A stretch of DNA of 64,000 nucleotides from a bacterium (GCA_021777565.1 JAJYDJ010000001.1:160142-224141); one strand, 5' to 3'; shown: positions 2,058 through 33,926, counted from the stretch's first letter. Notes: generated by a model not told the origin, from the letters alone. Program-made: numbers and translations.

Positions 2058-2804
2058 TTATTTTGCAGCACTGGAAGCAGCTTGAGTGGCGCCAAGTTCT
2101 TGTAAAATCCCTTGGTTGATGACTGGATTTATTGGCAGGTCAGTAAATTCTATGACGCGAAGTGCATTGATATTCCCATTGGATTCAGGCATACCAATAA
2201 CACTCACACGCTTGCCAACAACAAGTTTGGAAAAGCCAGCTTTGGCAATATTGGTACTTTGGCTGTAGGTAGAGGTTTTGGTGGTATTTTGTATATCTAC
2301 GGTCACTTTTTTATTGGCATTGGTAACAATCACCATTTGATAATTCTTCTTGTCTATTGAACCGATGGCACCAGTTAAGAACTGGGGAAGATTCATGACA
2401 TCCACAAAACGACCTAACATACGCTGAGAGTCTTTGTTATACAGTCCCAAAATACCCAATGTTGCCCCTTTTTGGATATCAGAGATGCCAAAGTTATTAC
2501 TTTTGGGAGAAGAGAATTTTGTAAGTTCATCAACGTCGACATAGCGTGTGTTCCCAGCGAGATCGGTCAGTGTAAGTTGGGTGTCACTTGTATCGGTGAC
2601 TGTTCCGATAAATCCACGTTTCTCAACCAGCTTGAGCTCAGCGACTTTGGAGGCGATGCGTGACTTGAGTGCGTCAATCTCAGGATTGAGTGTTGGGGTA
2701 GCTGACGTACTCGCCGCTGCTGGCGTAATCGTAGGTGTAGGGGCCGCCGCGTAGACGGTGGTATGCATAAAGAGTGCAAGTAATGTTGTGATGATTTGTA
2801 TCAT
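2058..2804 (-). CDS. secreted hypothetical protein
   Basis: N-terminal signal peptide (MIQIITTLLALFMHTTVYAAAP) followed by an Ala/Thr/Pro linker; no recognisable catalytic motif. Confidence 0.4.
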   Translation of the reverse strand: MIQIITTLLALFMHTTVYAAAPTPTITPAAASTSATPTLNPEIDALKSRIASKVAELKLVEKRGFIGTVTDTSDTQLTLTDLAGNTRYVDVDELTKFSSPKSNNFGISDIQKGATLGILGLYNKDSQRMLGRFVDVMNLPQFLTGAIGSIDKKNYQMVIVTNANKKVTVDIQNTTKTSTYSQSTNIAKAGFSKLVVGKRVSVIGMPESNGNINALRVIEFTDLPINPVINQGILQELGATQAASSAAK

Positions 2805-2807
2805 AGG

Positions 2808-3278
2808 TTAAAAATCCTCAGTACTTGAGGTAACGGTAAAGGTTTTCTGTGATTCCTGGCCATCAGGTGCGATAGCAGTAATGGTAATAAGATTTTCGCC
2901 ACTTTGCAGTACTGTCGTGAGTGAATAGGTTCCTGCAGAGGTTGGTGTTACCACTTGGTCATCGGTTGCCGTTGTCAACTCGAGTGTTGCATCGGGAACC
3001 GTTTTACCGGTGATAGTAAGGCTTCGTGAGGTAATGACACTTTCATCAGCGGGACTATCCACACTTAATTGGACGGCATTGGATGGGGTTGGGGTAGGAT
3101 TGGTAATTGAAATGGTCGGTATTTTGTTCTGAGGGATAGCCCTGACTATCTGGTACACAAAAAATGCTGCACCTGCCACAAATAGCCCAATGGAGATTGC
3201 AATAAAAGACAAAATGACTTTTTCTAGCTTCATAGCCTTTGGTGGGTCAATCATAGTGTATCGCATACTTCTTGTCAA
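2808..3278 (-). CDS. membrane-anchored Ig-like (Big) domain protein
   Basis: N-terminal TM anchor and beta-rich Ig-like repeat (SLTITGKTVPDATLELTT...TFTVTS); 4-nt gap to the upstream gene suggests an operon. Confidence 0.4.
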   Translation of the reverse strand: MTRSMRYTMIDPPKAMKLEKVILSFIAISIGLFVAGAAFFVYQIVRAIPQNKIPTISITNPTPTPSNAVQLSVDSPADESVITSRSLTITGKTVPDATLELTTATDDQVVTPTSAGTYSLTTVLQSGENLITITAIAPDGQESQKTFTVTSSTEDF

Positions 3279-3870: not shown

Positions 3871-5205
3871 ATGAAGACCCGTATCCCACCACATAATGAA
3901 GAAGCCGAAAAAAGTGTCCTCGGTGCAATCCTGCTGGACAAGGAAGCCATCAATACCGTCTCAGGCATTCTCAATGCGACTGATTTTTACAACCCTCATC
4001 ATGAAACACTGTATGGTGCCATGATGACACTTTTTGAAGAGCGAGAACCAATTGATGTCGTGACACTCTCGACATTTCTCAAGAAGAAAAAGCAGTATGA
4101 ACAAGTTGGGGGCGCACGATATTTGGCAGAGCTTGCCGAAGGAGTCCCAACCGCAGCCAATGTCGAGACCTATGCCCACCTGATTAAAGAATCCGCAACC
4201 AAACGGGGCCTCATCCACATGGCAGCTAACGTGTCTGATCTGTGTTTTGATGAGGATAAAAGTATTAATGATATTTTGGATACTGCCGAAAGTACCGTTT
4301 TTTCTATTGCTCAGGGCAATATCGCTGGAGGATTCGTCTCCATCAGAGATTCGCTGGCAGAAAGTTTTGAGCGTATCGATACGCTCCATAAAACAGGGGA
4401 TGGCATGCGAGGGGTTCCGACTGGATTTACGGATCTGGATAAAACACTCTCTGGTCTGCAGCCAAGCAATCTTCTCATCCTTGCAGCCCGACCAGGTGTA
4501 GGGAAGACGGGGTTTGCGCTGAATATGGCCCAAAATATTGCACTGCAGACCAAACGAGCTGTCGGGTTTTTCTCTCTGGAAATGAGTAAAGAAGAATTGG
4601 TCGACCGTATGTTAACGGGCCAGGCCAATATCGACGCATGGAGACTCAAGACGGGGAGACTGACTGAGGATGATTGGGAACGAGTGAGTCAGGCGATGGG
4701 GGAGCTTGCTGATGCAAAATTGTTTATTGATGATACACCGGGTATTACGATCAACGAAATGAGAACTAAAGCCAGAAGACTCCATTTGGAGCATAACGTG
4801 TCACTGTTTGTTGTTGACTATTTGCAGCTGATGAATCCTGGGAAAAAGGTAGAAAATCGTGTGCAAGAAGTCTCTCTTATTTCAAAGTTTTTGAAAAATC
4901 TTGCTCGTGAGCTCAAAGTACCCGTGCTTGCGCTTTCACAGCTCAATCGTTCTGTTGAGCATCGTGATAAGAATAGACCTGTACTTGCTGATCTTCGTGA
5001 ATCAGGAACCATCGAGCAGGACGCTGACGTTGTCATGTTCTTGTATCGCCCTGATGAAGAAGAACAGATCAACAGTAATGTGAAAAACTATAAATTAATG
5101 ATTGCAAAACATCGTAATGGCGCGATGGGGGAGATAGATCTTATCTTCAGAGGGGATCGTGTCAAATTCTTCAGTGTTGATAAAGTTCCCGGAGAAACCT
5201 CATAG
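3871..5205 (+). CDS. dnaB: replicative DNA helicase
   Basis: N-terminal PPHNEEAEKSVLGAILLD, Walker A GARPGVGKTGFALN, and a RecA-like C-terminal domain. Confidence 0.92.
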   Translation: MKTRIPPHNEEAEKSVLGAILLDKEAINTVSGILNATDFYNPHHETLYGAMMTLFEEREPIDVVTLSTFLKKKKQYEQVGGARYLAELAEGVPTAANVETYAHLIKESATKRGLIHMAANVSDLCFDEDKSINDILDTAESTVFSIAQGNIAGGFVSIRDSLAESFERIDTLHKTGDGMRGVPTGFTDLDKTLSGLQPSNLLILAARPGVGKTGFALNMAQNIALQTKRAVGFFSLEMSKEELVDRMLTGQANIDAWRLKTGRLTEDDWERVSQAMGELADAKLFIDDTPGITINEMRTKARRLHLEHNVSLFVVDYLQLMNPGKKVENRVQEVSLISKFLKNLARELKVPVLALSQLNRSVEHRDKNRPVLADLRESGTIEQDADVVMFLYRPDEEEQINSNVKNYKLMIAKHRNGAMGEIDLIFRGDRVKFFSVDKVPGETS

Positions 5206-6084
5206 TCCAGTCAGATCAATATCTTGTGCTGAGTATTCAATCCCATTGAAAATATATGTTTTTGCATAATTGTAGGTGGCTGCGTAGGCACTGGGGTATT
5301 CAAGAAAGTTAATAGAATGGTTAAATAAACTGGCGTTATGCTTATACATCGTGTAGGTAAGATACTCGCCATTCATATCTGCAAAACATTCATTCACGGG
5401 TGTGCCGCCACCAGCAGGACTCACACAGTTTTGCGTTGGAAGTTTCTCATGAGTGAATATGGTATTTTCATAATTCGTAAATACATTGTTTACATTTTTG
5501 TCGAGTATCAAATGTCCCAGTTCGTGCGCCATCACAAACATACTGGCCATAGGGTAGTCTGGACACCAGCCGATGGCTGAACAGTAGGCACTCTGATCGC
5601 TACAATAATTAGATAATGCATGCGGACCTCCAGAGATACCAAGTCCACAATTACTAACACCGTTCCCCCAGGAGAATGGAGCACTCACAAAATACACCGT
5701 TGCTGCACCCAAAAGATTCCCGTAGGTGCTTGATTTGTTAAGAAGACACAGCGTTTTGTAGGCGATGCGCTGTTGTCTGAGAACGGTTGCCTGATCGGTA
5801 CTATCTGAGGCAAAGGTGATGTGATAGCGTGAAGTCAAAAGAGAAGAAATATCTCCTCCCGTTGGTGGTGTGCAGTTACCTGCTGGCGCAAATGTCGTTT
5901 GAATATCAATGGTATTAAGGTTAATGGATTGTTTTGTTGATGCGTCAGGCACTTTTACCACCTGCTGCACAATTTCTCCTGGCACCGTGATCACAGGGAG
6001 TCTGCCAAAAGGAAGTCCACTCACCAAAAAAGTAGAGATGACCGCGACTGCAATGATAAGAATTGTCTCATATCCACCACGCAT
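5200..6084 (-). CDS. membrane-anchored extracytoplasmic zincin-like metallopeptidase (HEXXH)
   Basis: HELGH motif and many Cys residues. Start placed at internal Met (MRGGYET...) because that N-terminus aligns over ~70 aa with the CHAP paralog at 6850-7641; the ORF-track start is 6132. Confidence 0.5.
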   Translation of the reverse strand: MRGGYETILIIAVAVISTFLVSGLPFGRLPVITVPGEIVQQVVKVPDASTKQSINLNTIDIQTTFAPAGNCTPPTGGDISSLLTSRYHITFASDSTDQATVLRQQRIAYKTLCLLNKSSTYGNLLGAATVYFVSAPFSWGNGVSNCGLGISGGPHALSNYCSDQSAYCSAIGWCPDYPMASMFVMAHELGHLILDKNVNNVFTNYENTIFTHEKLPTQNCVSPAGGGTPVNECFADMNGEYLTYTMYKHNASLFNHSINFLEYPSAYAATYNYAKTYIFNGIEYSAQDIDLTGL

Positions 6085-6103
6085 ATACTCATGATAACAG
6101 ATG

Positions 6104-6865
6104 CTACTGGTAGGTAATATCAAGGGAATCAATCTGGGACTGGTTCAGCCCGAGGGATAGTGCCCAGGTGTTAAATGCCTCTCTAGCACTTACACTGTCA
6201 TGTTGAGGTGATGCGACTGAAAAGGCAAAATGTTCCTGTGGTGATTCTACTAGTTGTCCGGTAAGTGAAAAGGCACTTTCAGTGTGTGGTGCATGATCCA
6301 TAAGGTAAGCATCAGGATATTTATTTTTATTTGTTTCGCTACGGAGAATATTATGGTTGTCTGGGAATGGTTGTGTACTATCCTGGATAGTACTGAAAGC
6401 AAAGCTGTTGTATGTCACCTGATTTTGACTGCCAACAAAGACGTAGTAGGTGGTATTGGCCTGTAGCGGTTGGCTTAGTGTCATCTGGTATTGATTGCCA
6501 GTCTGGCTCAGGGTAAATGGAACACTTGGCACGATATCGGCATGAATCTGGTCAGTTGTAGGGGACTGAGACAAGGTAAAACTTATATTAGTAGCAAGAG
6601 GGACGTTAGTTGCTTGGTTGGCTGGTGTACTGGAGATGATTGTCAAAACTGGTGGCGGTGTGGGCTTAGTGGTCTGGCCGCTGCTTGGCAGAGAGGACGT
6701 AGGTTGTGTTGATCCACCTGTTGGGATAGGGACGAGCGGATTTTGGCCAGGAGTGGTTTTAAATGAGGTAGTGTAGATCAGAAAAACGGTGATCAAAATA
6801 ATACCGACTCCAATAATGCCACTGATGAGTAACAGATTTCTTTGCATAGCTATATTGGCCTCCAA
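6104..6865 (-). CDS. membrane-anchored surface protein with SbsA/Big_5-like Ig domain
   Basis: N-terminal TM helix, Ser/Thr/Pro linker, STPANQATNVPLATNISFTLSQ pattern typical of bacterial Ig-like domain 5; overlaps both neighbours, indicating an operon. Confidence 0.45.
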   Translation of the reverse strand: MEANIAMQRNLLLISGIIGVGIILITVFLIYTTSFKTTPGQNPLVPIPTGGSTQPTSSLPSSGQTTKPTPPPVLTIISSTPANQATNVPLATNISFTLSQSPTTDQIHADIVPSVPFTLSQTGNQYQMTLSQPLQANTTYYVFVGSQNQVTYNSFAFSTIQDSTQPFPDNHNILRSETNKNKYPDAYLMDHAPHTESAFSLTGQLVESPQEHFAFSVASPQHDSVSAREAFNTWALSLGLNQSQIDSLDITYQ

Positions 6866-7641
6866 AATCCAGATAAACCAGGATCATCATATCGCTCTGT
6901 TTGGACAATATCAACCGAGCCATCGCCACCATTTGCCTCTGCTACGGTAAAGTACGTGCTGTGTGCATCAAGGACATAGGCGATGTGGTTGGCCCCTGGC
7001 TCACCCCATATCGCGAAATCTCCTGTTTGTGCTTTCTGTGCGGGGGTAACCCACTGGAAATTGGATGCTTCAATGATGGAGGCATTGGCAGGGTAATGTG
7101 GTTTGGCGTAGGCGTACGCATTGCCAAATCCGACTGGTAAAAATTTATGCTGTGGGGTCAGGTAGTAAGAAACAGCCGCTGCAAATCCGACACATTGCAG
7201 ACATGTCTCTCCTGGTAGTTTTTTTTGATTGTCACATAGAATTCCTGTTGCACTGTCATGGATCATTGGATATATTTCCGGGTGCAAAATGCCATCCGGT
7301 ATGAGAGGGAAAAGAGGTGATGGATTGCCAGCGATACAGCTACTGCCACCCCTCACAAATCCTCCACAAGTACTTTGAATCACATCAACAAGGGTTTTTA
7401 CTTTCCCGGCAATGCCACTCATCCCTTGCGGTGCCCAGGTTGTCTGAATATCTAGCGTCTTCGCCTGAATACCGTACTGGGTGCTGGCACCTGGGGGAAT
7501 AATTTTTTGCTGGACAATCTCTCCTGGAGCGGTGAGTTGAGGCAGGCTTTTCCATGGCAATCCACTCACAATGAGGGTAGAAACAAGCGCGATAATGATC
7601 AGAAGTAGTGTCTCGTACCCACCTTTTGTATACCTATGCAT
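6850..7641 (-). CDS. membrane-anchored CHAP-domain peptidoglycan hydrolase
   Basis: CHAP signatures CLQCVGFAAAVSYY (Cys), GNAYAYA, GDFAIWGEPGANHIAYVLD (His); N-terminal signal-anchor KGGYETLLLIIIALVSTLIVSGL. Confidence 0.6.
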   Translation of the reverse strand: MHRYTKGGYETLLLIIIALVSTLIVSGLPWKSLPQLTAPGEIVQQKIIPPGASTQYGIQAKTLDIQTTWAPQGMSGIAGKVKTLVDVIQSTCGGFVRGGSSCIAGNPSPLFPLIPDGILHPEIYPMIHDSATGILCDNQKKLPGETCLQCVGFAAAVSYYLTPQHKFLPVGFGNAYAYAKPHYPANASIIEASNFQWVTPAQKAQTGDFAIWGEPGANHIAYVLDAHSTYFTVAEANGGDGSVDIVQTERYDDPGLSGFWRPI

Positions 7642-7689
7642 GTATTCATCGTATCAGGTTTGGGACATGTCTTTCCATAGGATTGATCG

Positions 7690-7719
7690 TTGACTTTACC
7701 TATTCCTGACGGCTATAAT
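7690..7719 (+). promoter_or_regulatory. sigma70-type promoter for 16S rRNA
   Basis: TTGACT (-35), 18-nt spacer, TATAAT (-10), about 125 nt upstream of the 16S 5' end. Confidence 0.55.
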
Positions 7720-7754: not shown

Positions 7755-7845
7755 GAGAAGCGACACTTTAAATATACACACTTCTTGAAAGGCAAGAAGT
7801 GGTAGGAACCGTTAGTACTTTGCATACGTGCAGAGTACTTCCTTT

Positions 7846-9308
<1,463 letters not shown>

Positions 9309-32958: not shown

Positions 32959-33926
32959 CTCAATCCCGGGATTGGGAATGGAAGCTTCAAGTTAAATATT
33001 TTAATCCACAAGACCATATATCCCAGAAGAAAAATAACAGCTCCAACAACATAAATAGCAACTGAGGTAGGACTTTTGGCTTTGGGTGCTATATAGCCAT
33101 GCACAGCATCCCCATGTTTGGCTCCACTGGCTGCTGGCGTTTCTGGAAGTGGTGGCAGTGGAGTCGTGGCAACTGGCGCTTCAGGAGTTGGTGGTGTTGG
33201 AATTGGTCCCAGGGACTCAGTGGGAGCAGGTGTCTCTGGAAGGGTTGGCACTTCTGGCTGTTCTTCTGGTGCGCTTGGCATTGGTGCTACTGGTGATGCT
33301 ACCAGATCTTCTGGTGGCATCTTGTGCTGCTCTGTTGTATCTGCTGGTGTAGTCTGAGTACTTGGGGTAGGCGTAGGTGTCGTTGATACACCTGGAATGT
33401 CCAGTGGTGGCATCACTGGTGGCTCAGGTGGTGTCCCTGGCGTAGGGGCTGCGGGAGACGTTGGGATGGATTCTGTTGGCTGCTCTGGAGTTGATGGCAT
33501 CACTGTCTCCGGAATCTCTGTTGACGTTGTTTCGGAGGGTGTTGCTACTTCCTCAGCCACCAGTTTTGGTGCTTCTACTGGCTGCTCTGGAGTAGTGGGC
33601 ATACTAGGTGTTACTTCAGGTGCTGCAGGTGTGCTTGGTGTTACGTCAGTTGGAATGGTTATCTCTGGTGCCGGTGGAGGAGGGGTTGGATTGGCAGATT
33701 GAGTAAATGGTCGATCTGATACAGATGGTGCCAATTCATCACTGGATGGCATGATCTCAGGTGCACGTTGTGTCTGTGGGGTAGCAGTTGGTGTGGCTTG
33801 ATCGCTTGGTGTCGTAGGGGTTACTGAGGGGGTACCACCCAGAACTGTGTTATAAATTTCCTGTAATTTTGGGTCAATCGTATCAGCCATGTATTCATCG
33901 TAACAACCTAGAGAAGAGAATGTCAA
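32955..33926 (-). CDS. Pro/Thr/Glu-rich low-complexity surface protein with C-terminal TM anchor
   Basis: About 250 residues of PTPxxP/TPS repeats and a C-terminal hydrophobic helix VAIYVVGAVIFLLGYMVLWI. Confidence 0.5.
   Translation of the reverse strand: MTFSSLGCYDEYMADTIDPKLQEIYNTVLGGTPSVTPTTPSDQATPTATPQTQRAPEIMPSSDELAPSVSDRPFTQSANPTPPPPAPEITIPTDVTPSTPAAPEVTPSMPTTPEQPVEAPKLVAEEVATPSETTSTEIPETVMPSTPEQPTESIPTSPAAPTPGTPPEPPVMPPLDIPGVSTTPTPTPSTQTTPADTTEQHKMPPEDLVASPVAPMPSAPEEQPEVPTLPETPAPTESLGPIPTPPTPEAPVATTPLPPLPETPAASGAKHGDAVHGYIAPKAKSPTSVAIYVVGAVIFLLGYMVLWIKIFNLKLPFPIPGLS

Follow-up and report, generated by a model that had tools for sequence, protein, structure and literature searches.

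An N-terminal module shared by a CHAP hydrolase and an orphan envelope protein, and a third, unrelated head in a related organism

The operon and its three products

In this work we analyzed a stretch of 64,000 nucleotides (nt) from a bacterial contig (GCA_021777565.1, JAJYDJ010000001.1:160142-224141), referred to below as the window, and specifically an operon of three genes, here called A, B and C, on its minus strand. These genes are consecutive, tightly spaced open reading frames (ORFs) of the same strand which together cover positions 5200-7641 (2442 bp). Proteins A and C start with the same N-terminal module of about 70 amino acids (aa) and continue into unrelated domains, called heads in what follows, and protein B, encoded between them, is a predicted surface protein with an Ig-like domain. 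The genes and their relevant parts are:

6850-7641, minus strand: gene A, a predicted 263-aa membrane-anchored CHAP peptidoglycan hydrolase (ORF, Pfam CHAP, PHROG endolysin families)
7414-7641, minus strand: shared module of A (residues 1-76), with a basic leader, GGYET, the transmembrane (TM) helix, VSGLPW, LPxxTxPGEIVQQ and DIQTTWAPQG
6859-7209, minus strand: CHAP catalytic domain of A (residues ~145-261; Pfam, endolysin alignment, PHROG)
6104-6847, minus strand: gene B, a 247-aa Big_5 Ig-like protein, predicted to be TM-anchored, with an extra ~90-aa C-terminal domain (Pfam Big_5)
5200-6084, minus strand: gene C, 294 aa with the ATG at 6084 as start, the shared module plus an orphan head with zincin-like motifs (ORF)
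5869-6084, minus strand: shared module of C (residues 1-72; BLASTP, alignments)
5512-5526, minus strand: HELGH (residues 187-191), candidate zinc-binding motif of C
5377-5394, minus strand: NECFAD (residues 231-236), candidate gluzincin third-ligand motif of C, 40 residues past HELGH

An earlier note on this DNA had described a three-gene operon with overlapping stops and starts. The ORF listing confirmed the three genes at these coordinates, but the overlap needs upstream TTG starts (6104-6865 for B and 5200-6132 for C), which are less likely than the ATG starts used here. With the latter, as in the public gene calls, A and B are separated by 2 nt, and B and C by 19 nt.

The heads of A and B were assigned as the note had proposed. 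Residues 149-237 of A match the Pfam CHAP hidden Markov model (HMM; PF05257) with 28.9 bits, above the cut-off of 26, and residues 145-261 align to the CHAP domains of the solved phage endolysins 8h1i/8xyf, with the Cys, His and Glu-x-Asn positions intact (QC150, H219 and E235-x-N237, within the motifs QC at 149-150, NHIAY at 218 and AEAN at 234). In addition, A matches PHROG endolysin families (E 1.5e-4). The Ig-like protein expected between the two enzymes was equally recovered, as B scores 37.8 bits with Pfam Big_5 (PF13205; cut-off 23.6), a match that is also held precomputed by the public gene calls. B has an N-terminal hydrophobic helix of its own, and its C-terminal 96 residues matched no Pfam family.

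A shared module, its origin and its distribution

Residues 6-73 of A and 2-69 of C align in BLASTP without a gap, with 39 of 68 positions identical (57%) and 52 of 68 similar (E 1e-23), and past the module the two proteins had no significant similarity, as expected from the divergence reported for their C-terminal parts. All the motifs quoted for the shared part are present, namely [KR]GGYET, a hydrophobic helix, VSGLP, LPxxTxPGEIVQQ and DIQTT[WF]AP. The homology of both N-termini is thus clear, but they are not almost identical or superimposable, as they had been described, since identity amounts to just 57% in the proteins and, likewise, to 57% in the DNA that encodes the module (117 of 204 nt). 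Counted by codon position, 44, 53 and 20 of the 68 first, second and third bases match, that is 29% at third positions. The Nei-Gojobori method gave a proportion of synonymous differences (pS) of 0.74, which is saturated, a proportion of nonsynonymous differences (pN) of 0.32 and a dN/dS ratio of ~0.14 or lower. Low DNA identity together with saturated third and synonymous positions shows that the module is an ancient duplication of a gene's 5' part, kept by purifying selection.

Three independent assemblies (the 953-kb contig of ERZ27236897, GCA_027424575.1 and ERZ27236866) contain the operon with 100% identity, and a fourth one, ERZ27233572, differs by one base across the 2442 bp. The variant of A encoded by ERZ27233572 has Ile for Ser at residue 131 (codon 7249-7251), between the module and the CHAP domain, which agrees with the sole single-nucleotide polymorphism of the operon among the four assemblies. 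The window holds no copy of the module beyond A and C.

We searched for further copies with a two-sequence HMMER profile of the module in all 1.84 billion representative proteins, which stand for ~15 billion. Three proteins only were retrieved: A, C and P0003 (E 3e-18), the latter a protein of 294 aa from GCA_037025105.1 and SRR24677564 that starts MPTKKLSRGGYETILVIVIAIVATFLVSGLPFGSLPHLTPPG and whose locus is referred to as L007. At the DNA level, a degenerate pattern (GGYET-13 codons-VSGLP, ~39 bits) that hits every known copy found none in 185,579 species-representative genomes, metagenome contigs of the Joint Genome Institute (JGI) or viral contigs. Back-translated PGEIVQQ[KV] and DIQTT[WF]AP retrieved no relative in genome contigs, and neither did patterns from B in the JGI metagenomes nor patterns from A in viral contigs. 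A word-index search with the 80-aa module returned nothing and missed the query itself, the index being too coarse for short queries; the same search with full-length B returned B only, a weak negative, as it missed the orthologue of B at L007. No model of a known family was matched either: residues 1-142 of A, which include the module, had no Pfam match at E-values up to 10, and the modules of A and C had no NCBIfam match at E-values up to 1. Because of the three profile matches, the lack of matches to the DNA pattern and the lack of family models, the module is private to one small, poorly sampled lineage. This bears on two further proposals of the earlier note. A modular family of envelope-displayed enzymes gains a third head with P0003, but comprises three protein clusters among ~15 billion proteins. 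As to the suggestion that the region after the helix is too conserved for a linker and could be a sorting or processing signal, a general sorting system is not supported and no known sorting-signal model was matched; a narrower sorting or processing role would be conjectural.

P0003 is informative on the history of the heads. Its module is 51% identical to that of C and 45% to that of A, and past the module it has no similarity to either. The head of P0003 reaches 13.5-14.5 bits with Peptidase_C39_2 (PF13529; cut-off 24; E 0.05-0.11); it is only a Q-C ... H pattern in it that suggests a papain-like enzyme, and a search of the PDB sequences with P0003 yielded nothing informative. An orthologue of B (42% identity) lies directly before P0003 at L007, so that P0003 occupies the slot held by C in the window. 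Furthermore, the 14 nt upstream match, with gcatctgtTATCAT-6 nt-ATG before C and gcatctgcTATCAT-6 nt-ATG before P0003. A tblastx comparison of L007 with the operon detected homology for B and the module only, and none for the heads in any frame, which rules out that C and P0003, both of 294 aa, are frame-shifted versions of each other. A B orthologue and a kept upstream motif combined with an unrelated head point to head replacement at a conserved locus, and most simply C and P0003 would be orthologous in their 5' part, with the catalytic 3' part exchanged. The extracytoplasmic parts predicted after residue 70 are rich in cysteine (8 Cys in C and 5 each in A and P0003; 5200-5868 and 6850-7413 in the window), which hints that these exposed domains are disulfide-stabilised or metal-binding.

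Regarding the anatomy of the module, G-G-Y-E-T before the helix and V-S-G-L-P at its end are invariant across A, C and P0003, followed by L-P-x-x-T-x-P-G and scattered positions of the stalk. The leaders are short and basic, MHRYTKG in A, MRG in C and MPTKKLSRG in P0003, each followed by G, YET and the helix. In each of the three proteins a single segment stands out as strongly hydrophobic (Kyte-Doolittle 19-mer means of 2.4-2.7, as opposed to 0.9 at most elsewhere); the peak of A, 2.42, covers residues 11-29. The hydrophobic span from Tyr to Trp/Phe measures 22 residues and is rich in Leu, Ile and Val, with Lys or Arg ahead and aromatic residues at both ends. A basic residue before a single hydrophobic segment bounded by aromatics is characteristic of an N-in/C-out signal anchor, which is the most likely topology of the module. 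AlphaFold models, computed from single sequences without alignments, place a helix at residues 6-26 of A, the sole confident part of that model. Within the helix, the invariant residues T11, I15, A18, T22 and V25, and then P29, are spaced 4-3-4-3-4 and fall on one helical face. For the three sequences, 4.4% of shuffles reached the observed helical moment.

Start-site signals, surroundings and source organism

Three candidate expression signals were located around the operon:

7690-7719, plus strand: TTGACT-18-TATAAT (11/12), a strong promoter-like site oriented towards the 16S gene and divergent from A
7648-7653, minus strand: TACGAT, a hexamer resembling a -10 element, 6 nt upstream of the ATG of A; candidate leaderless-type promoter
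6091-6096, minus strand: TATCAT, a hexamer resembling a -10 element, 6 nt upstream of the ATG of C, within the 14-nt stretch also conserved upstream of P0003

The 16S rRNA gene (7843-9308) is divergent from A, with 201 bp between them, and the strong promoter-like site faces it, in agreement with the divergent arrangement described before. A -35 element for A is weak, and the TACGAT upstream of this gene may act as its promoter. GGAGG precedes the ATG of B by 12 nt, A and C have no Shine-Dalgarno sequence, and these last two genes have in common a TAYSAT-6 nt-ATG layout. TAYGAT-6 nt-ATG with a TTGACA -35 hexamer precedes other genes of the window too. Besides, many genes in the window show a sigma-70-like -35/-10 pair in which the -10 element ends merely 5-7 nt from the ATG, at 33890 (-), 15967 (-), 16024 (+), 17568 (+), 3308 (+), 53980 (-) and 60765 (+), and also at 7641 (-) and 6084 (-); the site at 33890, for instance, reads TTGACA-18-TACGAT-GAATAC-ATG. 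These layouts suggest that leaderless mRNAs are common in this genome.

The operon is flanked by housekeeping genes (dnaB, 16S rRNA, hisS). The stop region of C overlaps the convergent dnaB (plus strand, 3871-5205) by six bases (5200-5205), which leaves no space for a terminator; in the related organism, the convergent gene after P0003 is a different one that does not encode DnaB. On the strand of the operon, past dnaB and a 166-aa gene, two further small predicted surface proteins are encoded at 2058-3278 (-). The first one (148/156 aa) is predicted to be TM-anchored and has an Ig-like Glucodextran_B match, and the second (248 aa) has a signal-like N-terminus and a faint DUF5666 match. The surroundings of the operon are thus rich in small envelope proteins.

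As for the source organism, the 953-kb contig, a GC content of ~44% and the lone 16S gene, with no 23S gene anywhere in the 64-kb window, fit a genome of the candidate phyla radiation (CPR)/Patescibacteria. The rRNA genes are unlinked. A Saccharibacteria-like origin, as put forward in the earlier note, was not confirmed: the TM7905 probe sequence matches perfectly at 8691-8712, but the TM7-580F primer finds no site when up to two mismatches are allowed, TM7-1177R differs from its site at three positions and the 515 site is atypical. An epibiotic lifestyle and a host-directed role of the enzymes are assumptions. The universal 515 region (8300-8330) reads GTGCCAGAAGTCTCGGTAATGCG here, the standard 515 sequence being GTGCCAGCAGCCGCGGTAATAC, and standard 515F primers would probably miss this organism. 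Spurious ORFs run inside the 16S gene, e.g. 8728-9252 (+), and public calls include a 156-aa "protein" there (8390-8860 in L001).

Interpretation of the module and known systems

Our favoured explanation, to which we assign a probability of roughly 0.55, is that A and C are paralogous single-pass envelope proteins in which the module acts as an anchor and stalk that docks unrelated heads to a common partner. The module would comprise four parts: a basic leader with a cytoplasmic GGYET, the hydrophobic helix, the VSGLP exit and a stalk rich in proline that includes two short strand-like segments. Since the duplication it would have been joined to unrelated heads, i.e. the CHAP domain in A, a probable gluzincin-type domain in C and the third head in P0003. 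The helix would insert via the general secretion route, with the N-terminus in the cytoplasm and the head held at the outer face of the membrane. Docking is proposed because conservation at the cytoplasmic face, on one helix face and at the outer exit exceeds what a generic anchor needs; the residues conserved on both membrane faces and on that helix face would dock the different heads to one partner, for which the co-encoded and co-conserved B, with its predicted TM anchor and Big_5 domain, is the candidate. The heads may in this way cut the wall of the cell itself, or possibly that of a host, in a controlled place.

Several points weigh against this explanation. First, VSG followed by LP fits the -3/-1 rule of signal peptidase I, and the helix could be removed. 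Second, a plain anchor would not usually have an invariant [KR]-G-G at its cytoplasmic end, the exact position of a prepilin peptidase cut. Third, the one-face conservation of the helix is marginal (p ~0.04) and comes from three sequences. Fourth, apart from the helix the AlphaFold models are of low quality (mean pLDDT 34.8 for C and 39.4 for A) and give no usable fold for the stalk or the head of C. Fifth, C stays below the cut-off of the metallopeptidase HMMs, with 18-18.5 bits for Peptidase_M78 (cut-off 22) and ~12 for Peptidase_M48 (cut-off 20.3). Finally, a physical contact between B and the module is conjectural.

The HMM scores of C bear on the claim of an HEXXH metallopeptidase made in the earlier note, of which the motif stood, HELGH being present with NECFAD downstream, but not the assignment to a family, as no family profile reaches its cut-off. 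C might be no peptidase at all, HELGH being a chance pentapeptide in an orphan surface domain, so that the operon would encode one hydrolase and two accessory proteins. The subthreshold M78 and M48 matches cover just ~25 residues around the HEXXH helix, nothing significant was found for C in NCBIfam, the PDB sequences or the PHROGs, and the word-index search with full-length C retrieved only C itself, a weak negative, given that the same method missed the 42%-identical orthologue of B. The AlphaFold model of C, unusable as a fold, adds to this. We nevertheless consider this possibility doubtful. In that model HELGH lies in a predicted helix (178-196) with a helix-plus-sheet unit ahead, an order that is compatible with a zincin, albeit at low confidence. 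The third-ligand helix of gluzincins has an E-x-x-x-D form, as in NEAISD of thermolysin and ENIAD of neprilysin, and NECFAD of C, 40 residues on, presumably belongs to this type, a comparison at the motif level. Moreover, all the Pfam and PHROG matches of C, though weak, are to HEXXH-bearing families (M78, M48 and a transcription-regulator family that matches solely over the HELGH stretch, residues 179-202). C is thus a probable gluzincin-like metallopeptidase, to judge from these motifs.

Two other readings concern the N-terminus itself. In one of them the module includes a cleavable Sec signal peptide cut after VSG, and the conserved part beyond would be the mature N-terminus, acting as a pro-peptide, a wall-binding peptide or a docking peptide. 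The basic n-region, the hydrophobic core, V-S-G and a Leu at +1 are found in all three proteins, signal peptidase I requires small residues at -3 and -1, and the conserved stretch LPxxTxPG...I.TT[WF] lies past the VSG site. However, the 22-residue span with aromatics at both ends is more typical of a stable anchor, and an invariant GGYET and a conserved helix face would have no purpose in a signal peptide that is discarded, which makes cleavage unlikely in our view.

In the other, the N-terminus would carry a class III signal of a divergent, prepilin-like type, cut by a prepilin peptidase after [KR]-G, and its helix would mount the heads on or beside a pilus-like fibre, in the manner of enzymatic minor pilins or of archaeal bindosome proteins. 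The leaders, being short, basic and Gly-ending, have the shape that this demands. With a cut after the first Gly, position +11 would be Ala and +14 a small residue, and an aromatic would come after the Pro at +22, an arrangement that resembles type IVa pilins. Furthermore, Saccharibacterial pilins are reported to be too divergent for sequence searches, and some of them to have extra C-terminal domains that resemble hydrolases or lectins (PMC11623550). Against these points, neither Pfam N_methyl nor NCBIfam TIGR02532 was matched at permissive E-values (Pfam <=10, NCBIfam <=1), the Glu is at +3 (or at +2 if counted from the other Gly) instead of the +5 of bacterial pilins, and a proline-rich stretch follows the helix in place of the amphipathic second half of a pilin helix. 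The pattern [KR]G[FMIYLV][ST][LIV][ILVM]E has no site in the 64-kb window, inspection of its ORF listing showed no obvious pilus genes, and the neighbours of the cluster are dnaB and the 16S gene. The earlier note had already set the motif apart from a canonical type IV prepilin signal by the position of the Glu. That a CPR-lineage prepilin-like signal would load interchangeable CHAP, zincin-like and papain-like heads onto a surface assembly resembling a pilus or bindosome and directed against a host envelope seems to us very unlikely; if it were true, the exchange of heads between C and P0003 would represent a cassette-like diversification of an attack or attachment tool.

Lastly, that the shared N-terminus is an assembly artefact, a mis-join, a recent duplication or a gene-conversion tract can be dismissed as practically negligible, being refuted by the 57% DNA identity with 29% at third positions, by the codon-position counts, pS and pN, by the identical sequence in several independent assemblies and by the third copy, 45-51% identical, in another organism, with nothing found in its favour. 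A signal-arrest-release (SAR) endolysin or prophage origin was also rejected, given a helix of too high hydrophobicity, a location among housekeeping genes and the lack of any relative in viral contigs.

Returning to the anchor proposed to dock unrelated heads, its relevance lies in the needs of ultrasmall CPR cells, which have very few known autolysins for the remodelling of their own wall and, probably, for breaching or gripping the envelope of a host, and in which the positioning of such enzymes is largely obscure. The locus is a clean natural case of one anchor and stalk on three unrelated heads, with one replacement at a conserved slot. If the module is a docking or processing device, it would point to a partner that controls the hydrolases and provide a handle for finding sequence-unrelated analogues in other CPR lineages, even though its own reach is limited to three protein clusters among ~15 billion proteins.

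Among known systems, the closest functional precedents are the staphylococcal TM-anchored hydrolases LytH and SagB, controlled by their membrane partners ActH and SpdC, respectively. As in Staphylococcus aureus LytH-ActH and SagB-SpdC, an N-terminal TM helix would tether a wall hydrolase outside the cell, and conservation by the helix is as expected for partner binding; in contrast to them, a single module serves two or three unrelated heads, the proteins are not related to LytH or SagB in sequence, and the candidate partner is a small Big_5 protein and not a polytopic one. The reuse of a targeting module with different catalytic domains is known from the pneumococcal choline-binding proteins LytA, LytB, LytC and CbpD and from staphylococcal SH3b/LysM fusions. 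Like these modular autolysins and endolysins, the proteins described here combine one non-catalytic module with varied catalytic heads, CHAP included, but the module is an N-terminal anchor plus stalk instead of a C-terminal wall-binding repeat, no known binding domain was matched and there is no phage context.

Class III signals are not exclusive to pilins, and the sugar-binding proteins of the archaeal bindosome carry them; minor pilins of Saccharibacteria with additional C-terminal domains (PMC11623550) are a comparable case. Such proteins have a Gly-ending basic leader, a helix of ~20 residues and a functional domain, in common with A, C and P0003, in which the motif at the cytoplasmic face is invariant. 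Here, however, no model of such signals was matched, the Glu is misplaced, prolines follow the helix and no pilus genes were seen nearby. PcsB-type CHAP hydrolases are governed by FtsEX. With PcsB, A shares a CHAP domain that probably acts on the own wall and is positioned by a non-catalytic N-terminal part; PcsB, however, is secreted and docks to FtsX through a coiled coil, whereas A is predicted to be TM-anchored, is devoid of a coiled coil and has no adjacent ftsEX that we could see. SAR endolysins likewise have a TM segment at the N-terminus of a muralytic enzyme, but the helices of that class have low hydrophobicity and a high content of Gly, Ala and Ser, in contrast to the Leu/Ile/Val-rich helix found here, with its Kyte-Doolittle values of 2.4-2.7. 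Altogether, the locus adds a lineage-private variant to the known membrane-tethered, modular wall hydrolases.

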